From a virus: a DNA stretch of 64,000 nucleotides. A program made the position numbers and the translations under genes. The notes beneath the pieces are model-generated. The model did no database searches. It was not told the origin of the DNA and saw only the letters and a list, made by a program, of their open reading frames with translations. The DNA lies in the IMG/VR virus record IMGVR_UViG_3300019890_000003, positions 1 to 64,000 of that record, one strand, 5' to 3'. Below are positions 10,315-57,649 of the stretch, in pieces. The first letter of the stretch is position 1; every line of letters starts with the position of its first letter.

Positions 10315-10608
10315 TTAATCACAGACCCACACACCATTGATCCAGCATGAAGGATACCAAGCTCCGCCTCGCCAGCCGCCATGGCCGCCGTGCCAATGGC
10401 CGCCTTCGTGGCCATGCCAGCCTTCATGGCCTCCGTGCCAACCACCGTGGCCGCCTTCATGGCCTCCGTGCCAACCACCGCCTCCGCCGTGCTCGTGGCC
10501 TCCACCGCCACCCTCATGGGCTGATGCGGTCATGCCAAGCGGCATTGCGCTCATGGCCACGGTTAGGAATAGAGCTACCATAAAATTACGCATTTTGGTC
10601 TCCGTCAC
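10315..10608 (-). CDS. Secreted Gly/His/Trp-rich low-complexity protein
   Basis: Signal peptide ending ASA; GGHEG/GWHG repeats; C-terminal CWINGVWVC. Confidence 0.65.
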   Translation of the reverse strand: MTETKMRNFMVALFLTVAMSAMPLGMTASAHEGGGGGHEHGGGGGWHGGHEGGHGGWHGGHEGWHGHEGGHWHGGHGGWRGGAWYPSCWINGVWVCD

Positions 10609-13149: not shown

Positions 13150-13455
13150 CTATGGAAGAATATTCCCAAAGACAGCAGTATCGATGTAACTATGCGGATC
13201 AAACCTGACAAACAGAGGAGGATTAAAGAATGGTACTTGCGGAATATGATTGACTGGGTAGTGGCGCCTTGGCGGAGCAGGCGCATTGCAATCTGCTAAT
13301 TGAAAGAGCCCAGACTCAAGAGGAATCGGTCCAAGCGTAGAGTTATAAGAGTACCACCCGACCGGAATGTGGTTCGTATCTGACTTGCGGATGTTGATTT
13401 CTAGATACCATTGCCCTGGCACAAACGAGATAAACCTGGCATTTGGGCTCGTCAT
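13150..13455 (-). CDS. Protein with one C-terminal PFFNP...FDPHSYID repeat
   Basis: C-terminus parallels that of the upstream 1290-aa protein. Confidence 0.65.
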   Translation of the reverse strand: MTSPNARFISFVPGQWYLEINIRKSDTNHIPVGWYSYNSTLGPIPLESGLFQLADCNAPAPPRRHYPVNHIPQVPFFNPPLFVRFDPHSYIDTAVFGNILP

Positions 13456-16400
13456 GGCAATATGTGTCCGCCCCGAATCATTTGTTCGACATACATCATG
13501 GGGTTAAATTTGACGTTCTGCGTTGGATTGTAAAACGGAACGGCGTGAAACGCAGGTAGCGGCCTGGCAGAATAGTTTGTCCGCATAGTACTGCACTTTA
13601 AAACCGGTTCCCCGTTTAGCGAGATCTCGAACCTACCGATGTCGAAGGGCGGCTGCAGCCAATTCCCAAATACATCCTGCACAGCAATCCTAATAACCGC
13701 ATCTTTATCGGCGCAAAGAACAATGATGTTGGTTTCGGTGCGGGTGCATTCAGTGTTGTCTATATATGATAGCGGATCGAATCTTACGGTTATAAACGGA
13801 TTGAAGAATGGAACGCCGGTTACTGGAATAGGATAAAACGGAACGCGCTGCGGAACAATGAACCTGTCCCGATAGCGGCTATCGGCGAACGGCGCTCCGA
13901 GTAGAGATTGAACCTTCCCTTGGATTACCGTCGGTAGGAATGAGCTTGCCGGGTATTTTGTTGTGTCGCGATAGCTTTTATCGGCGAACGGAACGCCGAG
14001 CGCCCGCTGAACCGGCGGCTGAATAAGCCGTGGCAGGAACGGGTGCGGCGGATATTCAGAGGTATCCCGATATTTCCCGTCGCTGAACGGAACACCGAGT
14101 TGGGACTGAACCTTGCCCTGGATTACGCCAGGGAGGAACGCATTCTTTAGACCGGCGGCAGTATCGAAATAGCCCTTGACGTCGAACTTGACAACCGGGA
14201 ATGGATTGAAGAACGGCGTCTGAACCACCGCTGGCGCAGGGAATAGACCCTGGTTGAGCGGATAGACGTAGCTGTCGCGGTACGCTTTGGCATTGAACAG
14301 TACGACATTCTCAATGAGATTTAAGAACGTCGAGGCCGGCGTTTGAATTATGGATGGAAGAAACGCATTATCGCCGACGTTGGTCGGATCGCGAAATGCG
14401 AGTGCGTTAAACGGTGCGCCAAGCAGCGACTGGACCAACGGGAACGTTGTTGGTGGCGGATAGAGTTCGGTGTTCCTCGGATAGACGTATGTGTCCCGAT
14501 ACGTAGCCGAGTTAAACGGGGCGGCGTTCTCGACGAAATTCAGGAACGTCGATGTTGGCGTCTGAATGATATTCGGAAGGAATGCGTTGTCGCCGAAGTT
14601 AGCTAGATCACGGTATCCTAGCGCGTTAAACGGCGCCCCTAGATAAGCCTGAACCTTTCCTTGGATTGTAAACGGAAGGAATGCGTTGGAGTCGAAACCC
14701 CTATCACGGTAGCTCTGCGTGCTGAAGACTGCCGGAAGAGCTTGCCCAAAGAACGGCGAGAAGACAACAGCCTGATATAAATTATCGTTTACAGAGGTGG
14801 CGGACGAATCTCTGTAGCTTAAGGTATTGAATGGTATGGGCGGCGGTGGCGGTCCAATTAACGCGCCAACTGGCTCGCCAATCGACGGTAAGAATGTAGC
14901 GTAAAGACTTCTGGATTCGTTTGCAACAAACGTCGGCGATAGATACGGATTTGGGAGCGCGAGATCGCCTCCCGCGTCATTGTAGACAGTTTCTGAGCTT
15001 GGATCAGCCCGAACAGTATCCGAATTAACTACGCTGAGGTACGCAAGCCAAACAACCTGCCCCGCGACAAACAACGGATTCGCGGTCGTGTTGATTGTAT
15101 TCCAGGCGTCGTGGCTAGGGCCTCCTGTTGCCTGCGCTAGAAGACTGCCCGGCTTACCGGCTACGTCGGAATAAACAGCCAGGGATAGGGTTGAATTGCG
15201 GCCGGTTGAACAATTAACCGATATAGACTCGATTGTCCCAGAATTCGGCACGATATACGGGCCGTTCGCTACCGTAACCCCGACCAGGTTGTAAAGGGAA
15301 CCTATTGAGGTAGTAGTATACCCTAGCTCAAACCCACGCGGCAAAAACGCGTTGAAGGTCTGATAGCCTAGCGGGTCGCGATAGCTGACGTTATTGAACG
15401 GAACGGACGCAATCGGATTGAAGAACGGCGAGACAGTTGCTACCGGGAATAGACTCGGGTTCTCGCCACCGAGCGAATAATCCCGATAATTTAGGCCGTT
15501 GAACGAAACTCCTAATAAGGACTGTACCGGATTCTGAATTGTGGCCGGCAAGAACGCATTAGCGTCAAACAGGCTATCTCGGTAGTTCAGCCCATTGAAC
15601 GGCGCGCCAAGTTGAGATTGAATCTCTCCTTGAATAATGCTCGGCAGAAATGCGTTCGGGCTCGGATCAAAATTAGCCGGATCACGATAGTTCAGGCCGC
15701 TAAACGGAAGAGGCGGCAGCGGGCTGAAGAATGGCGAACCTACTGGAGCCGGGAAGAGGCTTGGATTCCTAGTCCAAGTCGAAGAATCTCGATAGCTAAG
15801 GCTGTTGAACGGAACTCCCAGCAACGATTGCGCTGGGTTCTGGATCGTCTGCGGCAGGAACGCATTGGGACTTGGATCGAAATTAGCTGGGTCGCGATAG
15901 CTCAGGCTGTTGAACGGCGCGCCGAGCAACGGCAGAATCGGGAATTGCAGTACCCGAGGAAGAAACGCGCTCCCATCAAAGAAACTGTCGCGGTAGTTAA
16001 GCCCGTTGAATGGTCCGCCGGTAAGGGACTGAATCTCTCCCTGAATGATGGACGGAAGAAATGCGTTGAATGTCTCATAACCAAGCGTGTCGAGATACGT
16101 CTTGGCGTCGAACTTGGAAACATTCTCAATGAAATTGAGGAATGTCTCGACCGGCGTTTGTATGACGCTCGGCAGAAACGCGTTTTCGCCGAAATTGCTC
16201 GGATCGGCGTATTTCTGCGAACTAAACTGTGCCGCCGTCGCCGGATTGAAAAACGGCGTCGCAGCCGGCGGTGTGCTATAAAGGCTTAGATTTACCGGCG
16301 GTATGAAATAGTCGCGATAGCCAGCGCCGCCAGTGTAGCCAGCGACGTTTAAATCGGCGCTTTCTACGGCCGTCCCGCCACCGGCTGGCACATACGTGAT

Positions 16401-17324
16401 AACGATAAGGCCTGCGCCGCCGACGCCACCGGTGCCTGCTGTCGATGATGACCAACCACCGCCACCGCCGCCACCGCCATAAAGGCCGCCAGCTCCGCCA
16501 TTACCAGCAGCGCTAGTGTCTGGGCTATTGCGCCCGCCACCGCCGCCACCGCCTCCACCAGAGCCTTTGGTGCCGTCTCCGACGTCTAGGCCATTGCCAC
16601 CCGCACCGCCGTTGCCAGCGACCGCTGCGCCATTGGTCGAGCCACCACCACCGCCACCAGATCCATTCGATCCTGTGCCGCCATTTACACCGGCACCGCC
16701 TCCTGAGCCGCCCGCCGTCGAGTCAACCGCCGCGCCACCTGGAGCCCCAGTGAACTGATCTACAAGCGGCGTGCCGCCTGTAGAGCCGCCGCCATTACCG
16801 CCGCCGCCGCCGCCGCCATTCTGGCTGAAGCCTGTACTCGCCCCTGAACTGCCGCCAGCCTTCCCAGCGCCGCCGGGGCCGCCAGCACCACCACCTGCCG
16901 ATGCGCCGTTAACAGTGTTAGCTTCCGCGCCGCCGTTACCGCCATTGACGGCCGTGCCGATCGAGCCGGATGCAAGGCCGCCTGGGCCGAATGTCGCCCC
17001 AGTAGCGCCGCCGCCCGCTTTCGCGCCGCAGCTCGAGCCGCCGAGAGTCGTGCCGTTAAACCAAGTGTCGCCGCCAGTGGTGCCGATAGCGCCGCCGACG
17101 CCGACCGTATAAGTGGCCGTGCCACCAGGCGTTAGGTTGACATTGGCGATCTTGGAATATGCGCCACCACCGCCGCCAGCACCTGTGGTATTGGTGCCTA
17201 CAACACCGCTAGCCCCGCCGCCTCCAGCACCGACCGTCTCAACGCTATTGTTTAAAATATTGAAATCGGTCGGAACATTGAATGTCGCGAGCGAGCCCGA
17301 CGTCAGATAAATGACTACCGCCAT
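13452..17324 (-). CDS. Giant virion-accessory-like protein: Gly-rich N-terminal domain plus about 21 F-x4-Y-x-D repeats with an inserted beta-sandwich
   Basis: 1290-aa ORF; repeats such as LGAPFNSLSYRD...NAFLP. Confidence 0.75.
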   Translation of the reverse strand: MAVVIYLTSGSLATFNVPTDFNILNNSVETVGAGGGGASGVVGTNTTGAGGGGGAYSKIANVNLTPGGTATYTVGVGGAIGTTGGDTWFNGTTLGGSSCGAKAGGGATGATFGPGGLASGSIGTAVNGGNGGAEANTVNGASAGGGAGGPGGAGKAGGSSGASTGFSQNGGGGGGGNGGGSTGGTPLVDQFTGAPGGAAVDSTAGGSGGGAGVNGGTGSNGSGGGGGGSTNGAAVAGNGGAGGNGLDVGDGTKGSGGGGGGGGGRNSPDTSAAGNGGAGGLYGGGGGGGGWSSSTAGTGGVGGAGLIVITYVPAGGGTAVESADLNVAGYTGGAGYRDYFIPPVNLSLYSTPPAATPFFNPATAAQFSSQKYADPSNFGENAFLPSVIQTPVETFLNFIENVSKFDAKTYLDTLGYETFNAFLPSIIQGEIQSLTGGPFNGLNYRDSFFDGSAFLPRVLQFPILPLLGAPFNSLSYRDPANFDPSPNAFLPQTIQNPAQSLLGVPFNSLSYRDSSTWTRNPSLFPAPVGSPFFSPLPPLPFSGLNYRDPANFDPSPNAFLPSIIQGEIQSQLGAPFNGLNYRDSLFDANAFLPATIQNPVQSLLGVSFNGLNYRDYSLGGENPSLFPVATVSPFFNPIASVPFNNVSYRDPLGYQTFNAFLPRGFELGYTTTSIGSLYNLVGVTVANGPYIVPNSGTIESISVNCSTGRNSTLSLAVYSDVAGKPGSLLAQATGGPSHDAWNTINTTANPLFVAGQVVWLAYLSVVNSDTVRADPSSETVYNDAGGDLALPNPYLSPTFVANESRSLYATFLPSIGEPVGALIGPPPPPIPFNTLSYRDSSATSVNDNLYQAVVFSPFFGQALPAVFSTQSYRDRGFDSNAFLPFTIQGKVQAYLGAPFNALGYRDLANFGDNAFLPNIIQTPTSTFLNFVENAAPFNSATYRDTYVYPRNTELYPPPTTFPLVQSLLGAPFNALAFRDPTNVGDNAFLPSIIQTPASTFLNLIENVVLFNAKAYRDSYVYPLNQGLFPAPAVVQTPFFNPFPVVKFDVKGYFDTAAGLKNAFLPGVIQGKVQSQLGVPFSDGKYRDTSEYPPHPFLPRLIQPPVQRALGVPFADKSYRDTTKYPASSFLPTVIQGKVQSLLGAPFADSRYRDRFIVPQRVPFYPIPVTGVPFFNPFITVRFDPLSYIDNTECTRTETNIIVLCADKDAVIRIAVQDVFGNWLQPPFDIGRFEISLNGEPVLKCSTMRTNYSARPLPAFHAVPFYNPTQNVKFNPMMYVEQMIRGGHILP

Positions 17325-19317: not shown

Positions 19318-20364
19318 TCATGGCGGGCCATAGAAGCTAACACTGCTTGCTTGGATGGCATTGTCGATAGCGTCAGCCGTTTGCGACGCTACGATGTAGC
19401 CCTCATAAAAGGCGCCTGGAGAAGCATTACTTCCATCGCCGCCCTGCATCATAGCGATCCCCCCTTCAAGAAGCAGCGGGGTATGATCGCCTGGCAAAGC
19501 CACATTGTTATTCCAGGTTATTAAAGCCCCGGTTTGCGCATGTCCAGTTTTTCCTGTCCATACGGTTGCCCCATCTGTCTTCGCAATACCATTTTCGATA
19601 GTCGCACCCGCATAGCCGGTGCCAGACAAAAATAGGCCGCCATTCTCGATATCAATCGACTGCAATGGATTTGGATTTCCCCCCAGACCCAAGGCGAACA
19701 TGTGACCGTTGCCGTTATCGGAATAAGTACTCTCGCCCTCGCCAAAATCAAAGCAGCAGTTGTTGACCGAAAAGGTGCCGTTAATCGTCCAATATTCCGT
19801 CACAGGAACGCTAGCACCAGTGACTGGTGTGCCTGGCATTCCGCCATTGTTTGGATCGCCATTCCGTGTCCCAGTGCTATAACCAACCGCTGGCCGCTGA
19901 GGTCCATCTAATGTGCCGTTAAGCTCCTTCTCGGCATTGAAAACTATTTTGCCATTGGTAAGAACAATCCTGCGAACAAGCGCAGAGCTTCCTGTCGCTC
20001 CAAACCCAGTATTGGCAATAAAATCGAGATGGCTAGGCCCTTGGTCATAGAGCTTGGACATAAAGCAGGTTGTAGACGTGCAGAACGTGTCATAAGCCGC
20101 GTGATCTACGATGCCGTTGATCATGCCAATATCGAGAGTCGTGCTATCACTAGCCCGCACCGCTTGAAACAACTTACCGGTGTAGCTGTGGCTAAGAGCA
20201 CGATTCAACGAATAAGCCACCACCGCCGGCTTGTTCGCCAAAGCCAGAATATCCATCGGCCACTTGTTTGTTTTGCTACCATACTGATGAGTCATAATCG
20301 TAGCATGCGCGCCAACGCCAAGAATGCAGACTAGCAATATTAGAAGAAGGCTTCGCAGCTTCAT
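19318..20364 (-). CDS. Secreted alpha-L-arabinofuranosidase B (GH54)-like protein
   Basis: Signal peptide; AYSLNRAL, RASDSTTLDIG, FCTSTTC...LYDQ, NNCCFDFGEGE, DIENG, GGDGSN...GAFYEG match AbfB catalytic-domain motifs. Confidence 0.75.
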   Translation of the reverse strand: MKLRSLLLILLVCILGVGAHATIMTHQYGSKTNKWPMDILALANKPAVVAYSLNRALSHSYTGKLFQAVRASDSTTLDIGMINGIVDHAAYDTFCTSTTCFMSKLYDQGPSHLDFIANTGFGATGSSALVRRIVLTNGKIVFNAEKELNGTLDGPQRPAVGYSTGTRNGDPNNGGMPGTPVTGASVPVTEYWTINGTFSVNNCCFDFGEGESTYSDNGNGHMFALGLGGNPNPLQSIDIENGGLFLSGTGYAGATIENGIAKTDGATVWTGKTGHAQTGALITWNNNVALPGDHTPLLLEGGIAMMQGGDGSNASPGAFYEGYIVASQTADAIDNAIQASSVSFYGPP

Positions 20365-20985: not shown

Positions 20986-21501
20986 TCAGATCGTCTCGTA
21001 AACGATATGTCCACCGATAAGGCCTGCTGTACTGCCGGTGAACCCTGATAGAGATGCGTCTCCATTCGGCCCGGTAACGCCGACAAGTTTGAAGTACTCA
21101 CCTGGATCCATTGCCGTCCAGCGCACGATGCCACCAAACGCATTGAAGGTAAGATTCAACCTGCCAAGCGTCACGACGTTAGACCTGGTTGGCTGCGTCG
21201 TTGCCGCAATATATCCTACAGCCGGCAACGCTAGTGCAGCGGCTGCTGGATCCATAGGACCATTCGATGACGTACCCGCAGCCAGAGCGGTAGGCGTGGC
21301 GCCAGCGGTCGAATCGCGCGACAAAACCATATACTGCGGCGCAGACGAAGTGGCTTGGCCGCCCATGTACACTTCGCTGATGTCGTTACGCTGAGTGGCA
21401 GAGCCGCCACCAAGAGCCATATATGTACCGGTCGTTAGAACCGCGTTGTCGGCTGTCGCGGCAGTCGTGAAGCTGTTGGTGGAAAACGAATACTTGGTCA
21501 T
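20986..21501 (-). CDS. Beta-sandwich structural protein
   Basis: 171 aa, Thr/Ala-rich; SD GGGG/AAGG upstream. Confidence 0.6.
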   Translation of the reverse strand: MTKYSFSTNSFTTAATADNAVLTTGTYMALGGGSATQRNDISEVYMGGQATSSAPQYMVLSRDSTAGATPTALAAGTSSNGPMDPAAAALALPAVGYIAATTQPTRSNVVTLGRLNLTFNAFGGIVRWTAMDPGEYFKLVGVTGPNGDASLSGFTGSTAGLIGGHIVYETI

Positions 21502-21507
21502 AGCCCC

Positions 21508-21873
21508 TTATCCTTTTAGAAGCGGTGAGACAGACGTTAAGTTCGGGAGCGGGTTATATCCCGCCTCTTTTCTGAACGCCTGCTCTTGAAGGTGATCAAG
21601 CGTCTTAACAAAGGGAGTACATTCAGCGTGGCATGAAGGCTTGTCGCAGATGAACCGATCGCACTTCCGGCAATGGCCACGGGCTCGAACCCTGTACGGA
21701 TTCATAATCACGACATCGTCGCAATGAGCGCAGGTTTGTGTAGGCGCCTCTAACACCTTGCCCTCTGGCACCGCCATGGTTGGATCGAGGCCAACGGCGA
21801 ATAGCTCATCAGCGGTTATCCCTGGACTCGCGCGGTGATCGACGAGCAGGTGTCCTTCTTTTCTGCGCATCAT
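21508..21873 (-). CDS. Zinc-finger protein
   Basis: CAHC...CRKC...ICDKPSC...C. Confidence 0.6.
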   Translation of the reverse strand: MMRRKEGHLLVDHRASPGITADELFAVGLDPTMAVPEGKVLEAPTQTCAHCDDVVIMNPYRVRARGHCRKCDRFICDKPSCHAECTPFVKTLDHLQEQAFRKEAGYNPLPNLTSVSPLLKG

Positions 21874-22030: not shown

Positions 22031-23440
22031 TCAGTGCCACACACCGACCCAATCGACGAATAGGTCGTACTTCCCAGATGGAGGCGGGAGCGAAACCCAC
22101 CCACCGCCGGATGCAAGCTCCAGCATCGGCGCCCATAGCGGCTTCACTGCGGAATTAGGGGAGCTGTATTGCGGAAATGAATCGCATTTCAGCTGCACCT
22201 CGTCGAAATATTCACAGACAGTGCCGGTTGCGCTGCCAGAATTCGAAATCTTCATCCCGACAGTGTGCCAATCCCAGGTGAGATCCGCGCCCGACCCAAG
22301 AGGATACCCGGCATACCCGCCATTGGGGCTAGCTGGAAAGAACGCTGGCGCATATGCGTGCGTAAATGCCTGGTGATAATGGATGTCATTCCCGAACATT
22401 TCGGTCATGTCCATCTCCATGCCGCCATGAGTCTGATCGCTCAACTCAAGCATCCAGAAGGATGGCCACGTACCGCCTGAACAGGTATTATCGCCTGGGA
22501 CGTTACAGAAGGAGTTCGGGATCAGAATACGGGCGTCATAGTATCCGTCTGTTAGGCCAGGCGCAGAGGCTGATTTATCAGGATATCCTGTGCCGAGGAT
22601 CCCACACCGTTGCTTACGGCCAAAGCCGTAGGGATCGACATAAGCAGGATCGAAAGTGTTGCGGATACGCAACCCGCCCTGTGGTAGAATGGTAAATGGA
22701 TTGTACCCATTGACACTGTCGGTGTGCTCATTGGCGCAATCGCCGAAGTCTTGTCCGGTGAAGAGCCCTTCATACCATTTGAAACCATCAGATGCCGTTG
22801 GGGCAGTGCAGCTAGGCCACGTACCGGTGCCTGGCTTGCATGGTGTTGAGTTGAGCGTCGTGAAATGATCGCTGAAGGCGAGGGTCATTCCTGACGCTGG
22901 CGCAGGGGTTGGGATGGCAGGACGTGTGCCAGCTACAAAGAGCTTATACCTGCCCTGCAAATGGACTGTAGGACTACCGCCAGGCACGACATCGTAGGCA
23001 TTGAATTCCACAGTGAGCGGGCCTGCTGGCTCGGCGGATAGGTCGAGCAGACCGGTGAACATGCTGCCTGAGCCTTGTGTAAGCCTCACGGCCATCGCAC
23101 CATGCGTCCATACTTCGACATTGAGCGAGCCCAGCGCCTTGATAACGATCTGTTGCGGGCTGGCCGATACCGTCGCATTCGCGTCGGTGATGCCGAGATC
23201 CAACAAGGCTGGTGACGAAATCTGATTAGACGTCACGACATTGGGTGAGCAGGGTAAAATGATCCCCATCTGGTTGGTGGTGGCCGATGACGAGGAGCAT
23301 GTTGGGACCGGCTGACAAAGCGGCACGGTGATCTGCGTATAGCCGCTAGAGCACTCGGCGTGCGCCTCAGGGAACGCGAAGAAATGAACATACCCCAGCG
23401 CTATGAGGAGGAATAAAACCGCGATGAAGTATTTCAGCAT
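22031..23440 (-). CDS. Secreted GH16-like glycoside hydrolase
   Basis: Signal peptide plus Cys tag; FSDHF, GTWPSFWML, EMDMTE (ExDxxE), WHTVG, VDWVGVW. Confidence 0.75.
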   Translation of the reverse strand: MLKYFIAVLFLLIALGYVHFFAFPEAHAECSSGYTQITVPLCQPVPTCSSSSATTNQMGIILPCSPNVVTSNQISSPALLDLGITDANATVSASPQQIVIKALGSLNVEVWTHGAMAVRLTQGSGSMFTGLLDLSAEPAGPLTVEFNAYDVVPGGSPTVHLQGRYKLFVAGTRPAIPTPAPASGMTLAFSDHFTTLNSTPCKPGTGTWPSCTAPTASDGFKWYEGLFTGQDFGDCANEHTDSVNGYNPFTILPQGGLRIRNTFDPAYVDPYGFGRKQRCGILGTGYPDKSASAPGLTDGYYDARILIPNSFCNVPGDNTCSGGTWPSFWMLELSDQTHGGMEMDMTEMFGNDIHYHQAFTHAYAPAFFPASPNGGYAGYPLGSGADLTWDWHTVGMKISNSGSATGTVCEYFDEVQLKCDSFPQYSSPNSAVKPLWAPMLELASGGGWVSLPPPSGKYDLFVDWVGVWH

Positions 23441-25089
23441 GTGTGCGGGCTCGATGGCGCCGTGCCAGTTTGGGGAATTACGAAGCCAGGCGGTCCCCAC
23501 GTCCGATCGAAGTCCGTGAAGCTCACTGGCGCGCTGAAGACTGGCGACGTCGGATCGATGACATACGACCAGCATGTCAACTTCGGGTCTCCCGTGGTTG
23601 GGCTGGCATCGGTATAATTGCCGCCTGAGCTAAGCGTACCGCTCCCATAATTGTGATAGAAATTCGCCGTGATCGTCGGCGCGGTAGGCGGAGACCCACT
23701 CAGAATATTGTAGCCGCCACCGGCGGCGCCGCTGATGACGATGTTGTGCTCGACCTGATTGCCGTCCATGTTCGAATTAACGGGGCATGTCGTGGTTTGA
23801 AACGCCACAATGCTCTGTCCGAGAGTCGATAGATCGATCAGGTTGTTGTTCACCCGAACGTTACGGCCGCCATGGAAGAGCATGGCGGTATTCGAACCAT
23901 TGCGCCCAGTGATAACATTCCCGGTCGCGAGGATGTCCGTGGCGCAGTCATCCGCATACATGGCCGAGCCGAAGCCCGAACCGAGGGTGGCAAACGTGTT
24001 TGCGTCGCGGATGTAATTGTTGGTCCATTGGGCGCCGGTGCCGGTTTGCCTGGTGGCGTCGACTTGGTAGATCCCGCTACAATCCGCCTGCGCGGTGCAG
24101 GTGTTCCAAATCGCCATGTGGTCGATGTGGGGATTGGTGAGGACGCTACCGCTGCCAGGGTTGGTTATGTTTATGCCCCATGAATTGGTATCATGGATAA
24201 CGCCATGCGAAATCGTCATGCCGACAGGACCGTAGAAGGATATTCCGCCTGGCGCTGAGAAGTTGGAGTTCGTGGCGTACTCGTTAAAGATGATGAAATC
24301 TTTGAGGATGACGTTCGTATCGCCGCCCGTCGAATGGAAGCCGCTGTGCTGGAAATCGTGCAGCGACAGGCCGTCGATCGTCACATTTGTGGTGTGATCG
24401 AAGTTGAAGATGAAATGCAGGCCGTTGCCGAAGGCCGTCGAGCCGCCCGTAAGGTCGGCGCTGTCATAGCCGTCCGGAGGATAATAGGACCACGTCTCGC
24501 CACTATCGGCCGACGTGAGGGCTATCCCACAGGTAATGCCGGTGCCGCCGTCGCAATTCTGGACTGGCGTTGGGAAGCTGTAGCTGCCGGCGCGGATGTA
24601 TGTGGTTAGGATCGTGCCGCTCGCGCGCATGGCCGCTTGGGCTTTGCTAAGCGTGGCGAATGGCGCAGCTAGAGTCCCAGCATTGCTATCGCTGCCATTA
24701 GTGGCAACGTAGAACGCAGATGCCAAAGCTGGATTCACGGTCAAGGCAAGGGACGCCGTGCCTGTCCCGCCAGCGTTCGTCGCGCTCTCGGTCGTATTCG
24801 TGGTGCCGGTGACCGTGGGCGTGCCGGAAATAAGGCCGGTGCTGGTGTTGACTGACATGCCAACGGGCAGGGGCGATGCGCCCCAGCTCGTAGGGGTATT
24901 CGTGGCCGTGATCTGGAAACTGCACGAGGTGTTAACCGTGCAGCTTCCTGATGCCGGGCTCGTAATCACCGGCGCCGGCGTGCTGTTTAATTGGCACAAC
25001 GGCACTGTGACCGCAGTGTATCCAGCCGCGCACTCGGCAAAGGCGGGGCCGGCTAGCGCAACAAGGAAGGCTGCGAGAATACCTCTCAT
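23434..25089 (-). CDS. Secreted He_PIG Ig domain plus right-handed beta-helix protein
   Basis: Signal peptide plus Cys tag; LPVGMSVNTSTGLISGTPT; FYVATNGSDSNAGTLAAPFATL; Asn-ladder repeats. Confidence 0.75.
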   Translation of the reverse strand: MRGILAAFLVALAGPAFAECAAGYTAVTVPLCQLNSTPAPVITSPASGSCTVNTSCSFQITATNTPTSWGASPLPVGMSVNTSTGLISGTPTVTGTTNTTESATNAGGTGTASLALTVNPALASAFYVATNGSDSNAGTLAAPFATLSKAQAAMRASGTILTTYIRAGSYSFPTPVQNCDGGTGITCGIALTSADSGETWSYYPPDGYDSADLTGGSTAFGNGLHFIFNFDHTTNVTIDGLSLHDFQHSGFHSTGGDTNVILKDFIIFNEYATNSNFSAPGGISFYGPVGMTISHGVIHDTNSWGINITNPGSGSVLTNPHIDHMAIWNTCTAQADCSGIYQVDATRQTGTGAQWTNNYIRDANTFATLGSGFGSAMYADDCATDILATGNVITGRNGSNTAMLFHGGRNVRVNNNLIDLSTLGQSIVAFQTTTCPVNSNMDGNQVEHNIVISGAAGGGYNILSGSPPTAPTITANFYHNYGSGTLSSGGNYTDASPTTGDPKLTCWSYVIDPTSPVFSAPVSFTDFDRTWGPPGFVIPQTGTAPSSPHTC

Positions 25090-26363
25090 CTGAATGTCAC
25101 GCCAATGCAAGTCATGGCGCCAGAATTACCAGCCGTGAACGTTTGCGCTACGGGAGCTGACGCAGGCGCGTAATCTCCCCATCTATAAAAATCAGCGATC
25201 CCGCTTCCGGCTGTTACAACATGCGACAGCGTTGCCGGTGACAATGCCGTTGGAGAGCCGAGATCGTTCATCCCGACATAGAATGCCCACTCTCCTGACT
25301 GCCATGTTTCGCTTATTGCCGGCACGACGCATGTCGTTCCATTTGACGTGTTTGCCTTACTCGATACTGCCTTAACCGCAATCGACCCAGACGACGTTTT
25401 GTAATTCCTGATATTCCCGTCAATTGCCGCATAGGCCAGACCGGAACCAGGCATCGTTACCGTGTAAGATGCAGGCTCAGAACTTGCAGTACGAGAAAAG
25501 AGTGCTGTCGTGAAGTTCCCATAAACTGGATCAAGTGCATTAGCTAGGCGGGCAACCACCGTCCACCCTGCCGGGGTGTTTGGCGTCTCGACAGGATCGG
25601 TTAAGGCCGTCTGCGAAGTGACGACCATAAACATTAAATCGCCATTGGCGACGCCAGCAGGCGTGCTCAATACGACGGACTGCGAAGCCGAAGCATTATA
25701 TCCGCCGTCAGCGCCGAAGGAAATTGTGCCAGAGCCGGCCGCCGCGATGGTCAACGCCAGGTTTTGAGTTCCCGTCCCCGCCCCATTGGTTGCACTAAGG
25801 CCGACGGTGCTCGAACTAGCTGCCGTTGGCGTACCGGAGATAGTACCGGTCGAAGTGTTAATCCCGAGAGGAGCCGGAAGATTGCTTGCGCCATAGCTGG
25901 TCGGCATATTGGTTGCGGTAATATGATATGTAAATCCAGTGCCCACCGTGCCAGACGCCGTGGTGGGGCTGTTGATAACCGGTGGCGAGCCAGCGGCGGC
26001 GATAGTCAGGGCCAGCGTCTCATTGCCGGTGCCCGTCCCATTCGTCGCGCCTAGCGTGACGTTGCCGCTAAAGGGGGCAGTGGGAGTGCCTGATATGAGA
26101 CCGGTCCCCGTATTGACCCCAAGGGGTGATGGAAGCCCGGTAGCACTGTAGCTAGTGGGCGAATTGGTTGCGGTAATCTGGTAGCTGAAGGCCATCCCGG
26201 CGGTGCCGCTAGCGGTTGACGGACTAGTGACGACGGGCGCGCCAGTGGTGTTTTGCTGGCAGGCAAAGACGTTACTCAGCTGCGTGTAACCCGTAGCGCA
26301 CTGGGCATTTGCTCCCACCGTAAGCGCGATAAGTGCCGTGAAAGCAATGGCTAAGGACTTCAT
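25086..26363 (-). CDS. Secreted protein with two He_PIG Ig domains plus a beta-sandwich
   Basis: Signal peptide plus Cys tag; two ITATN.PTSY.A..LP..LG.NT.TG.ISGTPT units. Confidence 0.75.
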   Translation of the reverse strand: MKSLAIAFTALIALTVGANAQCATGYTQLSNVFACQQNTTGAPVVTSPSTASGTAGMAFSYQITATNSPTSYSATGLPSPLGVNTGTGLISGTPTAPFSGNVTLGATNGTGTGNETLALTIAAAGSPPVINSPTTASGTVGTGFTYHITATNMPTSYGASNLPAPLGINTSTGTISGTPTAASSSTVGLSATNGAGTGTQNLALTIAAAGSGTISFGADGGYNASASQSVVLSTPAGVANGDLMFMVVTSQTALTDPVETPNTPAGWTVVARLANALDPVYGNFTTALFSRTASSEPASYTVTMPGSGLAYAAIDGNIRNYKTSSGSIAVKAVSSKANTSNGTTCVVPAISETWQSGEWAFYVGMNDLGSPTALSPATLSHVVTAGSGIADFYRWGDYAPASAPVAQTFTAGNSGAMTCIGVTFR

Positions 26364-49935: not shown

Positions 49936-50121
49936 TCACCCCTCTGGAGGATCCGGCGCCTTTGTCTCTTCGGCAGTCTTAGCCAATGCCTTGAACGCAT
50001 CTGAGAACTCATGGTGGATTTGCAAACTAATTCTGCCTTCTGACGTCTCTCCACGGAACCACGTAATGATGTGGATGAACACGAGGATCCACACACCAAG
50101 GAACGTTAGGATCGCCAGCAT
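49936..50121 (-). CDS. Small membrane protein
   Basis: N-terminal TM; coupled to the GT2 gene. Confidence 0.45.
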   Translation of the reverse strand: MLAILTFLGVWILVFIHIITWFRGETSEGRISLQIHHEFSDAFKALAKTAEETKAPDPPEG

Positions 50122-50819
50122 TATCGGATATCTCTATGCGCGGTGGTCACCGGCTTTCCGGCGTACGCCACGGAAAGATAGTTCAGCGCATACGTCATCC
50201 CGGTTTTAATAATCCCCTCGGCTTGTATGCGCCGGCCAGAAGCCGGCATCGCCATATCCCAAGCCCAGCATATTTTCCCGTGCTCGGCCACGCGTACCGC
50301 GAGATCGGTGTCCTCGCCGTAGAACTCGATCGATGTGTTGAAGCCGCCCGCGCGCTCAAGCGCGTCGCGCCGAACCGCGAAATTCCCGCCTTGTAGCATC
50401 GCGCCGGTAATCCGATAAATCAGATAGGCATTCATGTTAAAGAACAGCGCCAAAACGCGTTGCCGTCTAGGCAAGTCATAGAAAAAGGATGGCCCAGTGA
50501 CGGCCGCGATAGGCTCGCCGAAATGCTTCAGAAGCCGCGTAAACCAATAAGCTGGCATGCGCGTATCCGCATCGATGCAGCAGATGATGTCGCCCCTGGC
50601 CGCCTCGAAGCCCCTTTGCCTAGCAAAGGAGATTCCCTTCCGTGGCTCGTCTACCACAACCGCGCCGTAGGCAACGGCGCCCGTTCTGTCCGTGGAGGCG
50701 TTGTTAACGACAATAATTTCAATCTGACGGAAACAATTCTTGGCTGCGTCCTTAATCGCCGCAAGGCAATCAGGCAATTCCGCTTCTTCATTATATGCGG
50801 GGATAACGACGCTAATCAT
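50121..50819 (-). CDS. GT2 glycosyltransferase
   Basis: ISVVIPAYNEE, VVNNASTD, CIDADT, GGFN...YGEDTDL. Confidence 0.9.
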   Translation of the reverse strand: MISVVIPAYNEEAELPDCLAAIKDAAKNCFRQIEIIVVNNASTDRTGAVAYGAVVVDEPRKGISFARQRGFEAARGDIICCIDADTRMPAYWFTRLLKHFGEPIAAVTGPSFFYDLPRRQRVLALFFNMNAYLIYRITGAMLQGGNFAVRRDALERAGGFNTSIEFYGEDTDLAVRVAEHGKICWAWDMAMPASGRRIQAEGIIKTGMTYALNYLSVAYAGKPVTTAHRDIR

Positions 50820-51456
50820 GCGGAATTTGCATCCACAAGAACATGGCGCCAACAATGGCACAAACGAAAACAATTAGGATCAAAATTGAATTCATCGGCC
50901 ACACCACCAATCTGATGGATGTATGACACATCCGACCACATAAATCGGCAGAAACAAAAGGCCAAACACCAGCACGAAGGCCACGATTGCTTTCACTTCG
51001 TGCACTTAACGGAGGTGGTGTGGATGCCCTCGGTGGTTTGTGTCGTCACCGGCTTATAGGAGCATGCGTTCTCGGACACATAGCCGTGCTTTTCCATCAC
51101 GGGCGTCCTGCAATAAGGCACGTATCCCGCACAAATAATCACAACAGCCGCGACGAGTTTCATTTGGGCACGCATATGGTGGCGGTCATTCCGCCTTGCT
51201 CGTAGGGACTCATCTTTGCAATTTCCACACGCGCGTTCTCACATGCGGCCTGCGAGCTGAACTCGGTGGAAAATCCCAATAGGGGATTGGTATTCCATAT
51301 GAGAAAGATCAACACATACATCATTTGGTCTCCAGCGCGATCGCCGCGACGAGTTTCATCCTTTATCGCCCAACTTCCAAATGAGGATAGAAACCGCCAA
51401 GGCAATCACTATAGCAACACCAATCGCGGTGGCCACTCCTATAAAAACACACTTCA

Positions 51457-53680: not shown

Positions 53681-54397
53681 CTAGCAATGGGTGACCAAGC
53701 CGGCGTTGACTGTAAAGAATGGGGTTGGCGGTCCGAAGCATGACACCGCCATGGTGCCTTTGACGTTTACGCTCCCGACGTCTAGTGTAAGCATACCTGA
53801 GCTGTGGATGTGGAAGTCGCTAGGCCATTGTTGTAGCCATGCGCTTGATCCATCTGGCGCTTCCCACCAAATGTAATCGTACACCGGCATGCCTATCGCG
53901 GCGCCCGCCTCGAGCGCGCCGTTGGCGAAGACAATTCCGGTTTTGTATTGCTGGGTGTTTGGGGCGATGGCCAAGGCCGTTCCACACTCATGCTCATTTG
54001 CCTGCCCGTTCCCGCAATCGATCAGGAGATTGGTGTTCGTGACTGGATTCCAATTGTATGGGGCACGCCCGGCCACCACCGGCCCTTGGTTGACAAGGGA
54101 GTTTTCCTCGTCGATCAGGCGGCCGGAGCTACCCGGCGTGATGACGCCAAGCGTGTAACGCGCCCAGGCGTTCCCAGAGCCGCCGCCGCTGTTGAGCATC
54201 GCGATCGCGGTGTCGGCGACGGTGTAATTGTTGATGGTTCCCAAAGTTTGCGTGGCGGCCACACTACCGCTCCCCGCCGCCGCGCCAAAATACGCTCCGA
54301 CGAAGGACGGTACCGTGTTGCAAACCGGGGCCACGCATGTTTGTGCGGACGCCGCCGAGCTGAAGAGAGCGGCGAGTAAGACAAAATAACTTCGCAT
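53681..54397 (-). CDS. Secreted fibre/spike-like protein
   Basis: Signal peptide ASA^QTCVAPVC; C-terminal VSC.GPPT.FFTVNAGLVTHC. Confidence 0.65.
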   Translation of the reverse strand: MRSYFVLLAALFSSAASAQTCVAPVCNTVPSFVGAYFGAAAGSGSVAATQTLGTINNYTVADTAIAMLNSGGGSGNAWARYTLGVITPGSSGRLIDEENSLVNQGPVVAGRAPYNWNPVTNTNLLIDCGNGQANEHECGTALAIAPNTQQYKTGIVFANGALEAGAAIGMPVYDYIWWEAPDGSSAWLQQWPSDFHIHSSGMLTLDVGSVNVKGTMAVSCFGPPTPFFTVNAGLVTHC

Positions 54398-54402
54398 TGC
54401 GA

Positions 54403-54780
54403 TTAACTACACGTAACGGTGATAGTCGTTGGGGCCGAGGTGCCGGTCGAACTTATCGCGTAGAGCACAAACGTATAGGTCCCTGCCGTTCCCGCGCTCA
54501 TATAAAACAAGCTTGTATTTGGACCGGGATTGGACGCAGTAAAAAGCGGCGGACTCCCTCCGCTAGTGCTGTACCCATAAAACGACGTAACGTTACCGGA
54601 AGCCGTGGCTTGATATGTGTTATTAATCCCGCCAACCACACAATTTGATGTCGTCAAAGGGCTCGTGATCACCGGATTCGTTTGTTGACACACCGGAAGC
54701 GCCGGACCAGCCACGCATTGAGCAAAAGCGGAGGCTGGGGCAAAGAAAAATAGAATTAGCAGACGACACAGTTTCGTCAT
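54403..54780 (-). CDS. Secreted single Ig-like domain protein
   Basis: AFA^QCVAGPALPVCQQ then PVITSP...YQATA...GTYTFVLYA. Confidence 0.65.
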   Translation of the reverse strand: MTKLCRLLILFFFAPASAFAQCVAGPALPVCQQTNPVITSPLTTSNCVVGGINNTYQATASGNVTSFYGYSTSGGSPPLFTASNPGPNTSLFYMSAGTAGTYTFVLYAISSTGTSAPTTITVTCS

Positions 54781-54790
54781 CACCACCGCC

Positions 54791-57310
54791 TCATAGTTCC
54801 GCCGCCGTAGTTGAAACATTTGTAATACTACAAGTTCCTCCTGCACCGCCTGCGGATAATTGAACATCAAACCAAAGAGCTGTTGATAGGGTTCTTCCAG
54901 TTGTGACTCCAGAAAGAGAAAAAACGCTTATCTGATCTGTGGCGAACGTCGTCTGTTCTGACGCTCCAAGAACCGTTCCAGTAGTGGCCGCTCCGAGTGT
55001 TGGGGCGGTACCAGTTCCGAACCGAAGAGCCACAAAACATCTGTCGTTCGTAAGTGTGTTCGCTACAGAACCGTTTACAATAAATAAGACCGTGCCGGTT
55101 TTTGTCGGAGTGATTGCGCCCGCAAGGCCCTCCATCACTGCTGTTACACTAGAATTCCCACTAGCTGGATTTGATGGGGCGGCCGTACCACCAGAGGTGG
55201 CCAAACTGCATGTCGAGCCAAGGGTACAGGTGACGCCGTTAACTGTCGTGCTAGGATTCGCCAGCTTGGTGTTCGTGACGGCAGCAGAACCTATCGTTGT
55301 CGCGCACGAGCCAGCCGATGTTGTGACATCTCCAGTCAACGCTGGTGTCTGCCCGCAAGCAAGTGAACTCGCAATATTGGAAAACGCTAATGGCGATCCG
55401 CCGATTTGATACGTGCCAGAAGCTAGATTGAGACCGCCGCCAGTGGAAAGCGTAAGCAGCGCGCCATAACCGCCGCCATTAACCTGGCCGCTCCAAACCA
55501 GATTGCCGCTTGGACTAATTGCCCCTTGAACAGGTTGCAGTTCTTCGATCACGTCGACGGTCTGGCTACCGGCGGTCGCGTTGGTCTTCCAACCTTGGCC
55601 CGTGAAGTGCACGCGCGGCGACCATTTCTGAGCACCAACCGTCGCCGCCGTAATATCCGTCAAGAGCAAACCATCGGTGCTAGTGGCAGCGATCGCTTGC
55701 GTGCCAGTGATAGCACCAGAGGTCCCTAGGCTCGTTAAAGTGCCCAAACTCGTCAGGGACGATGCCGTGACGCCGGCCGCCAGAGTGGCACCTGTCAACG
55801 TGCCTGCCGGAGCTATAACCGCGTTCGAGCCTGCCGAGACAATCAACCCCTTCCCGTTAACATTGAAGTTAGGGATAGAAGTCGATGAGCCGAAGGAACC
55901 CACATTCGTGTTAACCGTGGCCAACGTTGTGGCGCAACCAACGGACGTGACATCACCTGTTAATGTACCGCACGCTCCAATGGCAGCGGTGGTCATAGCG
56001 GTAACAAGACCCTTGCCGTTTACCGTTATAACTGGGACAAGCGAGGAGCTTCCGAAGGTGCCTGTATTGGCGTTGACCGTGTTCAACGTGGTAACAAAAC
56101 TATTCGCCGGCGTCGTGAGATCCCCGGACATCGCCGCCGTTTGTAAATTAGTTCCTGAGAATGCGAGCGTCGCCCCGAGCGCCACCGCTCCCGCATTGCC
56201 GATCGAACCGGAAGAATTCCCTACCAGGCTGCTTGCAGCAACCGTTTGAAACTTGCCATAGGTTACGGCGTTCGCCGCGATCGTCGTGGCGCATGAGCCA
56301 GCGCTCGACGTGACGTCACCCGTATTGGCTGGCTCACTAGCGCAAGCGACATTGAATCCAGATGCGGTGGTGCCGCTCGCCAACGTGCCGGTGCCGGTAA
56401 TGTTAGCCTGGGTCGCCGCTGGGATTGTCGATGAAATCGACGGGACTCCGCCAGCGCCCGTAATGAGCACGCCGTTGTTCGCCGTCGCAAGCCCGACGAC
56501 GGTTGTCCCGGCCGCGTTGTACCAAGCGAGCTGATTGATCAATGCAGACGTTACGGTGCCGCCACCGCCGCCAACCGTGCAAGCGCCACCGGCATCGATG
56601 AAATTGCCGCTTGCATCGATCGAGACGCAGTGACCGCTGGTAAGGGTGCCTGTCGCTGTAGCAAAGGTGGTCGTGCTACCAGAGCGCGTGCCAAAAGCGA
56701 CATTCGAAGTTCCCGCCCCAATCAATGGGGCATTAGCCGTCAGAGTCGCGAGACCGGTGCCGCCATTAGCAACGGAAACCTGCCCTGTCAGATCGGTGGC
56801 CGGGATCGCCGGAAGATCGGCATTGACGAGCGCGCGGAATGTGGGCGTCCCTGTCGAGCCACTCGGCGCGGCGAACACCTTGTTTGTTGTCTGTGTTGCG
56901 AGCGATACGGCAAACGTGCCAGCGCCGGTAATAGGGGATCCGCCGACGGCCATAATAGACGGGACCGTCATAGCAACGGATGTTACAGTGCCGCCGCCTG
57001 TAAGGGATATGCACCCAAGAACTCCGCCATTGTTGTATAAGCCAAATCCGTTCGTGCAAGCGCCGGTGATCGGGCTCCCAACCGTCAGGCCAACGGCTGA
57101 TCCATTTACGAAGAAGCCGCCCGAAACATTTATGGTGCCGATACCCTTTTGGCCGCCAGTCGGCGCGCCCATAGTAAGGCCGCCATTGTTGTAAAAAAGA
57201 GATAGCGACGGCCCGTAATTCCAAGGGTCCGGCGGCGGACCAGGGCCGGTCTGCGCATAGACAGCGCTAGAGAGCGCCGCGAATCCTAGGATTGCGAGGA
57301 CACGTTTCAA
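54791..57310 (-). CDS. Long fibre protein with signal peptide
   Basis: 839 aa, Thr/Gly/Ala-rich; TGDVTS and GSSS..P...VNGKGL repeats. Confidence 0.7.
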   Translation of the reverse strand: MKRVLAILGFAALSSAVYAQTGPGPPPDPWNYGPSLSLFYNNGGLTMGAPTGGQKGIGTINVSGGFFVNGSAVGLTVGSPITGACTNGFGLYNNGGVLGCISLTGGGTVTSVAMTVPSIMAVGGSPITGAGTFAVSLATQTTNKVFAAPSGSTGTPTFRALVNADLPAIPATDLTGQVSVANGGTGLATLTANAPLIGAGTSNVAFGTRSGSTTTFATATGTLTSGHCVSIDASGNFIDAGGACTVGGGGGTVTSALINQLAWYNAAGTTVVGLATANNGVLITGAGGVPSISSTIPAATQANITGTGTLASGTTASGFNVACASEPANTGDVTSSAGSCATTIAANAVTYGKFQTVAASSLVGNSSGSIGNAGAVALGATLAFSGTNLQTAAMSGDLTTPANSFVTTLNTVNANTGTFGSSSLVPVITVNGKGLVTAMTTAAIGACGTLTGDVTSVGCATTLATVNTNVGSFGSSTSIPNFNVNGKGLIVSAGSNAVIAPAGTLTGATLAAGVTASSLTSLGTLTSLGTSGAITGTQAIAATSTDGLLLTDITAATVGAQKWSPRVHFTGQGWKTNATAGSQTVDVIEELQPVQGAISPSGNLVWSGQVNGGGYGALLTLSTGGGLNLASGTYQIGGSPLAFSNIASSLACGQTPALTGDVTTSAGSCATTIGSAAVTNTKLANPSTTVNGVTCTLGSTCSLATSGGTAAPSNPASGNSSVTAVMEGLAGAITPTKTGTVLFIVNGSVANTLTNDRCFVALRFGTGTAPTLGAATTGTVLGASEQTTFATDQISVFSLSGVTTGRTLSTALWFDVQLSAGGAGGTCSITNVSTTAAEL

Positions 57311-57325
57311 CGGCCTTCTCCAGGC

Positions 57326-57640
57326 TTAATAAACGACGACAGTGAATTTGTGATTGCTCGTGGCGGCGTTCACGAGCGTCGCGGTGACTTGGCCTGGAAT
57401 TAGGTTCCAACTCTGCCCCGGTTGGAGCGCAATGGCCGTTCCATTCGCATTCAAGCCTGGAGACACGCCAGTCGGGTCTACGATAAGCGGCTCTGCCGTG
57501 CCGATACCTTGATCAGAGGCCGTGAGCGGATTCACGATATATCCGCCATTATAGCCAGCCGGCAAGGCGAAGGCGGCAGTTACCGCCGTCCCGCCGGTTG
57601 TGATAAAACTGTGGGCGCCTGCGACTGGTGTTACGGTCAT
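57326..57640 (-). CDS. Stand-alone beta-sandwich adaptor domain
   Basis: Paralog of the N-terminus of 59445..60554 (NPL.ASDQGI...VNAATS.H.FT). Confidence 0.65.
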   Translation of the reverse strand: MTVTPVAGAHSFITTGGTAVTAAFALPAGYNGGYIVNPLTASDQGIGTAEPLIVDPTGVSPGLNANGTAIALQPGQSWNLIPGQVTATLVNAATSNHKFTVVVY

Positions 57641-57649
57641 GTTCAGGTC

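Follow-up and report, generated by a model that had tools for sequence, protein, structure and literature searches.

A conserved cysteine-pair tag behind the signal peptides of modular phage proteins is a candidate docking peptide

We examined a 64-kb stretch of viral DNA (64,000 nucleotides, hereafter the window), which forms the start of the 77,681-bp IMG/VR virus record IMGVR_UViG_3300019890_000003, rated complete by CheckV. Our subject is a short cysteine-pair tag that directly follows the predicted signal peptides of three adjacent genes, A, B and C, and of a fourth gene, D, in the fibre region (Table 1). The window encodes the large terminase subunit, the portal and head morphogenesis proteins (3.6-8 kb), a lysozyme and lipoprotein cassette (51-53 kb), and baseplate hub, wedge and fibre proteins (57-64 kb). 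Based on the terminase, portal and head genes together with the baseplate hub, wedge and fibre genes, we consider the phage to be myovirus-like. We found no close relatives of B or C in IMG/VR, and a word-based search with residues 1-40 of B matched only B itself. Among cultured phages there was no relative of B, and the 839-amino-acid (aa) fibre-like protein of the window was matched through short repeats only.

Genes A, B and C all lie on the minus strand, and their stop and start codons overlap between neighbors. A, which ends in TFR and a stop codon, overlaps B by ATGA (the ATG of B is at 25089), and the TGA of B (23436-23434) lies inside the first seven bases of C, ATGCTGA, with the ATG of C at 23440. 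Signal peptides were called with a rule-based script that looks for a basic n-region, an uncharged h-region of 8-17 residues and small residues at positions -3 and -1; proteins that pass these rules are referred to as exported below. The three N-termini have a K/R n-region, an uncharged hydrophobic core and an AxA motif, followed by the tag, and the same rules assign Sec-type (signal peptidase I) signals to A, B, C, D and E. The predicted mature N-termini are QCATGYTQLSNVFACQ in A, ECAAGYTAVTVPLCQ in B and ECSSGYTQITVPLCQ in C, which share the pattern [Q/E]-C-x2-G-Y-T-x6/7-C-Q. A sequence-only reading of this DNA had described three such overlapping genes, each with a Sec-type signal, a cysteine-pair tag and a different cargo. 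By our signal-peptide rules the arrangement is as it described, and the cargo does differ from gene to gene: two immunoglobulin-like (Ig) domains plus a beta-sandwich in A, an Ig domain plus a predicted beta-helix in B, and a beta-sandwich plus a GH16 domain in C.

Table 1. Tagged genes, their tags and adjacent exported genes of the fibre region (window positions)
Feature	Position	Strand	Description
Gene A, 425 aa	25086..26363	-	Predicted signal peptide 1-20; type-1 tag 21-36; two He_PIG Ig domains ~40-206; C-terminal beta-sandwich-like domain ~207-425
Type-1 tag of A	26256..26303	-	QCATGYTQLSNVFACQ, residues 21-36, immediately behind ANA
Gene B, 551 aa	23434..25089	-	Predicted signal peptide 1-18; type-2 tag 19-33; He_PIG Ig domain 39-119; predicted right-handed beta-helix ~120-551
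Type-2 tag of B	24991..25035	-	ECAAGYTAVTVPLCQ, residues 19-33
Gene C, 469 aa	22031..23440	-	Predicted signal peptide 1-28; type-2 tag 29-43; beta-sandwich ~50-175; GH16 catalytic domain ~183-469
Type-2 tag of C	23312..23356	-	ECSSGYTQITVPLCQ, residues 29-43
Gene D, 125 aa	54403..54780	-	Predicted signal peptide 1-20; short tag QCVAGPALPVCQ at residues 21-32 (54685-54720) after AFA; small Ig-like domain
Gene E, 238 aa	53681..54397	-	Predicted signal peptide, then QTCVAPVCN; six cysteines in mature chain
Fibre-like protein, 839 aa	54791..57310	-	Predicted signal peptide; no tag; 14 cysteines in mature chain

The cargo assignments rest on profile matches, homologs and structure models. The He_PIG profile (PF05345; gathering cut-off 24) matches A in two stretches (57 bits, E 2.7e-15) and B with 32.6 bits, and finds nothing in C or D. 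In the AlphaFold2 (AF2) model of A, the Ig domains have high confidence and the C-terminal domain low confidence; this C-terminal part resembles beta-sandwich domains of ~200 aa in Atlas models of phage proteins. Tested against the Pel9A-like profile (PF22842/PF13229), B scores 22.3 bits, under the gathering cut-off of 25.2, and the NCBIfam model PelN matches only its N-terminal part (1.5e-10). The beta-helix part of B is 45-49% identical to tagged proteins from three other loci (L003, L004 and L012), and these homologs pass PF13229. We therefore predict that the C-terminal part of B is a Pel9A-like beta-helix. The AF2 model of C has a mean predicted local distance difference test score (pLDDT) of 83, and its best matches in the PDB are GH16 laminarinases (E ~1e-12). 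C has no Pfam match at E<=0.01, and 10 of its homologs carry PF00722. It has the beta-jelly-roll fold of GH16 and the E-x-D-x(-x)-E motif of that family (E342-M-D344-M-T-E347), in which D344 and E347 are invariant and E342 nearly so across 27 homologs. Only the nearest homologs (P0003, P0005 and P0006) retain the tag. The remoter GH16 homologs have an N-terminal signal sequence and no tag; one is a named protein from a Methylocella metagenome-assembled genome (MAG) and most are unnamed metagenome proteins.

Two further genes in the fibre region had been proposed to carry related tags. For D this holds, in a shorter version (QCVAGPALPVCQ): the profile search gave hit P0032 for it (E 1.3e-11), and it has a homolog, P0055, that is 47% identical. 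The ATG of D lies 10 nucleotides past the stop of the gene for the 839-aa exported fibre, which D may have as its binding partner through its short tag. This fibre shares repeats with annotated tail fibres, and its C-terminal domain also occurs in the fibre of L003 and in a 189-aa exported protein. E fared differently. The tag profile did not pick it up even at E<=100, and the features it has in common with the tagged proteins are only a signal peptide and a close cysteine pair, so its QTCVAPVCN segment is unsupported as a fifth tag and we left E out of the tag count. The products of four successive fibre-module genes at 53681-58816 (minus strand; 388, 839, 125 and 238 aa) all have a Sec-type signal peptide and an even number of cysteines. 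Just before them, with a stop that overlaps the first start codon, is the gene for a signal-less 210-aa protein, which matches only the N-terminal part of tail-fibre families (phrog_8469).

In a six-frame pattern search of the whole 77.7-kb genome, it was present in A, B, C and D only. We built a profile of signal peptide plus tag from these four genes, which score 59-73 bits against it, compared with 5.8 bits for the best other frame of the genome. A search of 1.84 billion representative proteins with this profile returned 28 matches at E<=1e-3: three from the window, two doubtful ones (P0054 and P0056) and about 23 foreign clusters with the motif at the same place. All of the foreign clusters are metagenomic, with two other phage records and two Beijerinckiaceae MAGs among their sources, and on cluster look-up they are unnamed metagenome singletons. 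The tag thus extends beyond the close paralogs of the window and precedes unrelated, variable cargo, in line with the sequence-only reading. At least eight unrelated cargo groups follow the tag, and the Pfam names found for them include He_PIG, beta-helix, GH16 and M23 peptidase. No Pfam or NCBIfam model covers the tag, and our literature search found no description of the motif or of exported tailspikes. The distinctive feature of this stretch is a conserved connector-like tag with paired types, absent from the family libraries and papers searched.

A search of IMG/VR with degenerate DNA patterns for each of the three tag types gave just two further records. One (G001, 48 kb, rated complete) is podovirus-like, with T7-type internal virion proteins and ordinary signal-less tailspikes. 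Before its lysis genes come seven exported genes in one block, which includes all three of its tagged genes. The other (G002, a partial record that includes locus L004) is myovirus-like and has its tagged genes between the baseplate genes and a long exported fibre. Synteny with the window extends to the metagenome contigs L012/L013 and L010; the corresponding position there holds other tagged genes, followed by conserved homologs of window 21508-21873 and 20986-21501. A two-gene cassette (a type-1 gene of 113 aa and a type-2 GH16 gene of 302 aa) occurs in a Methylocapsa MAG and two metagenome contigs, flanked by an insertion sequence (IS) element and host-like genes, including a porin-like gene. 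Another copy of this cassette is present in a Beijerinckiaceae USC-alpha MAG. A scan of genomes returned these two Beijerinckiaceae MAGs and one chance match in Adhaeribacter with no open frame. Given the tagged cassettes in Beijerinckiaceae MAGs, this family is the likely host group. Of 201 genomes from the family to which the Methylocapsa MAG belongs, a single one has the tag, so we rejected a general host sorting signal for the genomes searched.

Three forms of the tag, which spans 15-16 residues in types 1 and 2, can be distinguished. Type 1 (A-Q-C-A-[ST]-G-Y-T-Q-L-S-N-V-[FY]-A-C-Q) is found on non-catalytic binding modules, and no type-1 cargo showed a catalytic family. Type 2 (A-E-C-A-x-G-Y-T-x-[IV]-x-V-P-[LI]-C-Q) is carried mostly by beta-helix or GH16 enzymes. 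The short form (C-A-x-G-x3-5-P-V-C-Q) occurs in D, P0055 and a 366-aa protein of L003, and short-form proteins are encoded directly behind a long exported fibre. For 36 of 39 sequences, A-x-A-[QE]-C lies within the first 60 residues, which places the first cysteine at +2 of the predicted mature chain. The residue before this cysteine is Q or E in all tags of the window and in 36 of 39 relatives. Because of this residue, which does not fit a lipobox ([LVI][ASTVI][GAS]C, with a small residue ahead of the cysteine), we rejected a lipoprotein (signal peptidase II) signal.

We counted constraint and gene pairing over the seven loci with DNA (the window, L003, L004, L005/L009/L014, L007, L010 and L012/L013). 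For the 16 type-1 codons, 336 pairwise comparisons gave 135 identical codons, 189 synonymous differences (56%) and 12 amino-acid changes. All 12 changes come from a single locus; QCA[TS]GYTQLSNV[FY]ACQ is invariant in the other six. The type-2 comparisons are looser (67 identical, 76 synonymous and 67 amino-acid-changing). Tags inside the window also differ from one another at many synonymous sites. Such wide synonymous divergence with protein identity indicates that the identity of the tags is selected at the protein level and does not stem from recent recombination, and we rejected recent gene conversion as its cause. By these codon counts, the tag is under strong purifying selection.

Related loops are also found in other arrangements. 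P0043 and P0049 have three or four tandem copies (CHSGGTQPSIPLC[EQ]QQ) separated by Q/E/R-rich linkers, and in P0043 the tandem loops are followed by an M23 peptidase domain. Tandem loops occur in a 904-aa protein of L004 as well, and in P0048 the loop is internal, ahead of an Ig domain. These cases mark the loop as an autonomous mini-domain.

The gene order offers clues to function. A type-1 gene adjoins a type-2 gene in all seven loci (the assignment in L007 is probable), often with overlapping or nearly abutting codons. The short-tagged protein of L003, whose gene overlaps the stop of the fibre gene, has a cargo that shares 72% identity, over 193 aa, with the C-terminal tip of the exported fibre of G002 (L004). 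One and the same domain is thus part of a fibre in one phage and the product of a separate, tagged gene in the other. All eight exported proteins of the window have an even number of cysteines, as do 33 of 36 tagged mature chains, and 16 of the 36 contain no cysteines besides the tag pair. In the other genes of the phage, counts are even in 39 and odd in 23. The even counts are consistent with oxidative folding after export. AF2 models the type-1 tag of A as a hairpin (E26-28 / E35-37) at a pLDDT of ~60 and leaves the type-2 tag of C with a pLDDT of <50; neither tag is packed on the next domain.

Our tentative first choice, which we hold at somewhat less than even confidence, is that the tag is a periplasm-oxidized docking peptide through which separately encoded exported modules would be assembled. 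After Sec export the protein would reach the oxidizing periplasm, where a disulfide would close a hairpin of 8-12 residues, and this hairpin would serve as a protein-protein docking peptide. Outside the cytoplasm, type 1 would connect to type 2, and the short form would connect to the fibre, so that separate modules that bind glycans and modules that cut them end up in a single complex; the cargo could be exchanged while the connector stays unchanged. We infer export, signal-peptide cleavage and any interaction from sequence features, and we likewise infer disulfide closure, docking, the identity of the partners and the final location (released virions or the cell envelope). We rank docking first because it accounts for the N-terminal position of the tag, its invariance, the paired types and the fusion case. 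It also has a precedent in the peptides by which branched receptor-binding systems dock their parts (PMC6872550, PMC13352976). The unpacked state of the tag in the AF2 models and the presence of a cargo domain inside the signal-less 1290-aa adhesin of the window point the same way.

Several points weigh against docking. No docking partner was identified. As type 1 does not vary, covariation between partners is not measurable. A free N-terminus is not required, given the internal loop of P0048 and the tandem loops of P0043, P0049 and the 904-aa protein of L004. Both podovirus-like and myovirus-like phages have the tag, as does the cassette flanked by an IS element and a porin-like gene, which makes a single conserved virion site unlikely. 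AF2 gives the tag low confidence, and signal-peptide cleavage and export are called by rules only. The docking tag proposed in the sequence-only reading thus stands in part: the many unrelated cargoes, purifying selection, even cysteine counts, pairing of types 1 and 2 and fibre-tip fusion give it indirect support, whereas the claimed tag of E is unsupported and the spread of the tag over different virion types speaks against one conserved virion site.

We place second the possibility, less probable than docking, that the loop binds a component of the host envelope (peptidoglycan, lipopolysaccharide or an outer-membrane protein) and so holds phage lectins and glycanases at the producing cell. 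Receptor polysaccharide could then be trimmed or masked late in infection or in lysogens, with exclusion of other phages, surface display or easier release as possible outcomes. The tag could be invariant because its host ligand is, and such an anchor would fit the independence of the tag from virion type (podovirus-like G001, myovirus-like window and G002) as well as the two-gene cassette that, in Methylocapsa-type contigs, has an IS element on one side and host-like genes on the other. The tandem related loops ahead of the M23 peptidase also point this way. Tandem repeats before an M23-type hydrolase are an arrangement typical of wall-targeting repeats. The remoter GH16 homologs of C, with signal sequences and no tag, can be read likewise, and the MAT fibres of Bdellovibrio are built on the same plan, with a conserved N-terminal anchor behind the signal peptide and a tip that varies (PMC10769870). 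However, an envelope anchor leaves unexplained why two conserved tag types are always found in adjacent genes, and it does not explain the fibre-tip fusion. The tag is no general host signal (1/201 family genomes), a Sec signal by itself leads only to the periplasm, and the tagged genes belong to late structural operons, where their translation is coupled to that of structural genes.

The simplest explanation would need no partner at all: the hairpin would merely protect or nucleate the N-terminus, for example against periplasmic proteases or acid soil, and would have spread as a cassette of signal peptide plus protein start. Every short-form loop, the internal one of P0048 included, leads into an Ig-type start (PVITSP), which suggests an ancestral unit of loop and Ig domain; the signal-peptide c-region GLTxxANA travels together with type 1; and the residue at +1 is Q or E. 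An N-terminal Q or E could cyclize to pyroglutamate. We nevertheless consider a structural cap unlikely. All 16 positions, polar surface residues included, are kept in six of seven loci despite saturated synonymous change, which exceeds the needs of a cap. The two types stay distinct and paired, the tag is also fused directly to cargo with non-Ig folds, AF2 leaves it unpacked on the next domain, and exported neighbors do without it (the 839-aa fibre, the 388-aa protein and a GH54-like enzyme). Least probable of all, in our view, is that, once lysis has breached the inner membrane, each tag plugs directly into one conserved site on the finished particle, be it the baseplate, the head or the 1290-aa repeat protein. 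Tagged genes do lie in or beside fibre and adhesin modules, and the only signal-less fibre of the window is the 210-aa stub (phrog_8469); the first exported gene starts in an overlap with the stop of this stub gene. In vitro, T4 particles that lack fibres can bind isolated tail fibres, which would fit such late attachment. Yet beyond the exported block we found no structural protein common to all tag-bearing phages, their morphotypes differ, G001 also has ordinary signal-less tailspikes, and in the portions of G001 and G002 that were read the repeat adhesin did not appear. The occurrence of the tag in podovirus-like and myovirus-like phages and in a cassette without phage flanks argues against a single conserved virion docking site, which on this distribution seems unlikely.

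Some known systems resemble the tagged proteins in part. In collectins, ficolins and C1q-type lectins, N-terminal cysteines link subunits into multivalent assemblies through inter-chain bonds beside a collagen stalk. Like the tagged proteins, these lectins have N-terminal cysteines ahead of variable glycan-binding heads and belong to an oxidizing compartment; unlike them, the tagged proteins have no collagen, and closure within the loop is the simplest reading of their cysteine pair. In the Klebsiella phages KP32, K11 and KP34, in K1E/K1-5/SP6 and in G7C, conserved N-terminal peptides dock secondary receptor-binding proteins (RBPs) (PMC6872550, PMC13352976). These branched RBPs share with the tagged genes a short conserved N-terminal peptide (7-29 aa in the RBPs) ahead of variable, exchangeable depolymerase or binding cargo, and adjacent genes. 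They differ in being cytoplasmic, with no signal peptide, no cysteine pair and no sequence similarity to the tag. Their partner is a T4gp10-like branching domain on the primary RBP. The tag described here stands behind a Sec signal, and its types are paired. General Pfam and PHROG scans showed no T4gp10-like branching domain; no search was aimed at one.

The MAT fibres of Bdellovibrio bacteriovorus have a conserved module behind the signal peptide that is presumed to bind an unidentified surface element (PMC10769870). They too are phage-fibre-like, with a signal peptide, a conserved module right behind it and variable adhesive tips. However, the MAT module is a beta-rich domain of ~130 aa compared with a 16-aa loop here, its genes are chromosomal genes of a predator and not phage late genes, and there is no sequence relation. 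We do not place the tagged proteins in the MAT superfamily, as their conserved part spans 12-16 residues and the next domains differ. WceF of Pantoea stewartii is a bacterial glycan-modifying enzyme with a phage tailspike-like fold that acts on the exopolysaccharide of its own producer; it differs in being a bacterial gene, and its title and abstract describe no conserved N-terminal tag family with variable cargo (PMC7949094).

If the loop is a connector, exported modules that bind or degrade glycans would have in it a very small docking element, defined by its sequence and transferable, and it would offer a concrete handle on what tailed phages do with fibre-like proteins that bear secretion signals. 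Specific candidates for binding are the type-1 and type-2 peptides and the C-terminal domain of the fibre, which makes the question tractable by experiment without a cultured host. A more far-reaching version, which we put forward as an unlikely extension, is that the host-recognition apparatus is partly built outside the cytoplasm: exported, oxidized fibres, lectins and glycanases would be clipped together by three cognate cysteine-loop connectors, and the branched complex would join the particle only once lysis has mixed the compartments. Such extracytoplasmic assembly would be a plug-and-play receptor-binding system of a kind undescribed for tailed phages. If the loop is instead an envelope anchor, receptors would be trimmed from within the infected cell.

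Other genes of the window and of the related loci are described here for completeness. Directly downstream of the tagged cassette, at 20986-21873 (minus strand), are genes for a 121-aa Cys-rich protein (CxxC...CxxC) and a 171-aa protein. Both are 77-79% identical to the products of L012:7775-8693, although the tagged genes there differ; the two genes thus form a conserved core beside a variable cassette. A 1290-aa repeat adhesin (13452-17324, minus strand) contains an inserted domain (residues 664-811) that is 36% identical to the 'FNVGY' cargo domain, which belongs to tagged 190-aa proteins of other phages (L003 and L004). Because the adhesin has no signal peptide, one binding module is used both with and without export, and the cargo domains are ordinary fibre parts. 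A 348-aa protein (19318-20364, minus strand) combines a signal peptide with an alpha-L-arabinofuranosidase B catalytic domain (PF09206, 2.4e-45) and has no tag.

Small exported Gly/His-rich proteins (HEGGGGGHEHGGG-type) recur in the window (~10318-10593, minus strand), at L010:7725-8018 and at L012:12899-13330. Behind the tagged cassette of L010 (11143-11483) is an exported gene that looks phosphoesterase-like by eye. On the Methylocapsa MAG contig, L005:3779-7998 encodes a SagB-type dehydrogenase, a YcaO-like protein and a small Gly/Cys-rich open reading frame, which together form a thiazole/oxazole peptide-type cluster; it lies a few kb from the two-gene tagged cassette and is probably unrelated to it. 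Finally, near the lysis cassette of the window, 50121-50873 (minus strand) encodes a GtrB-like glycosyltransferase (phrog_841) of the O-antigen conversion type, a second way in which the phage may alter the surface glycans of its host.

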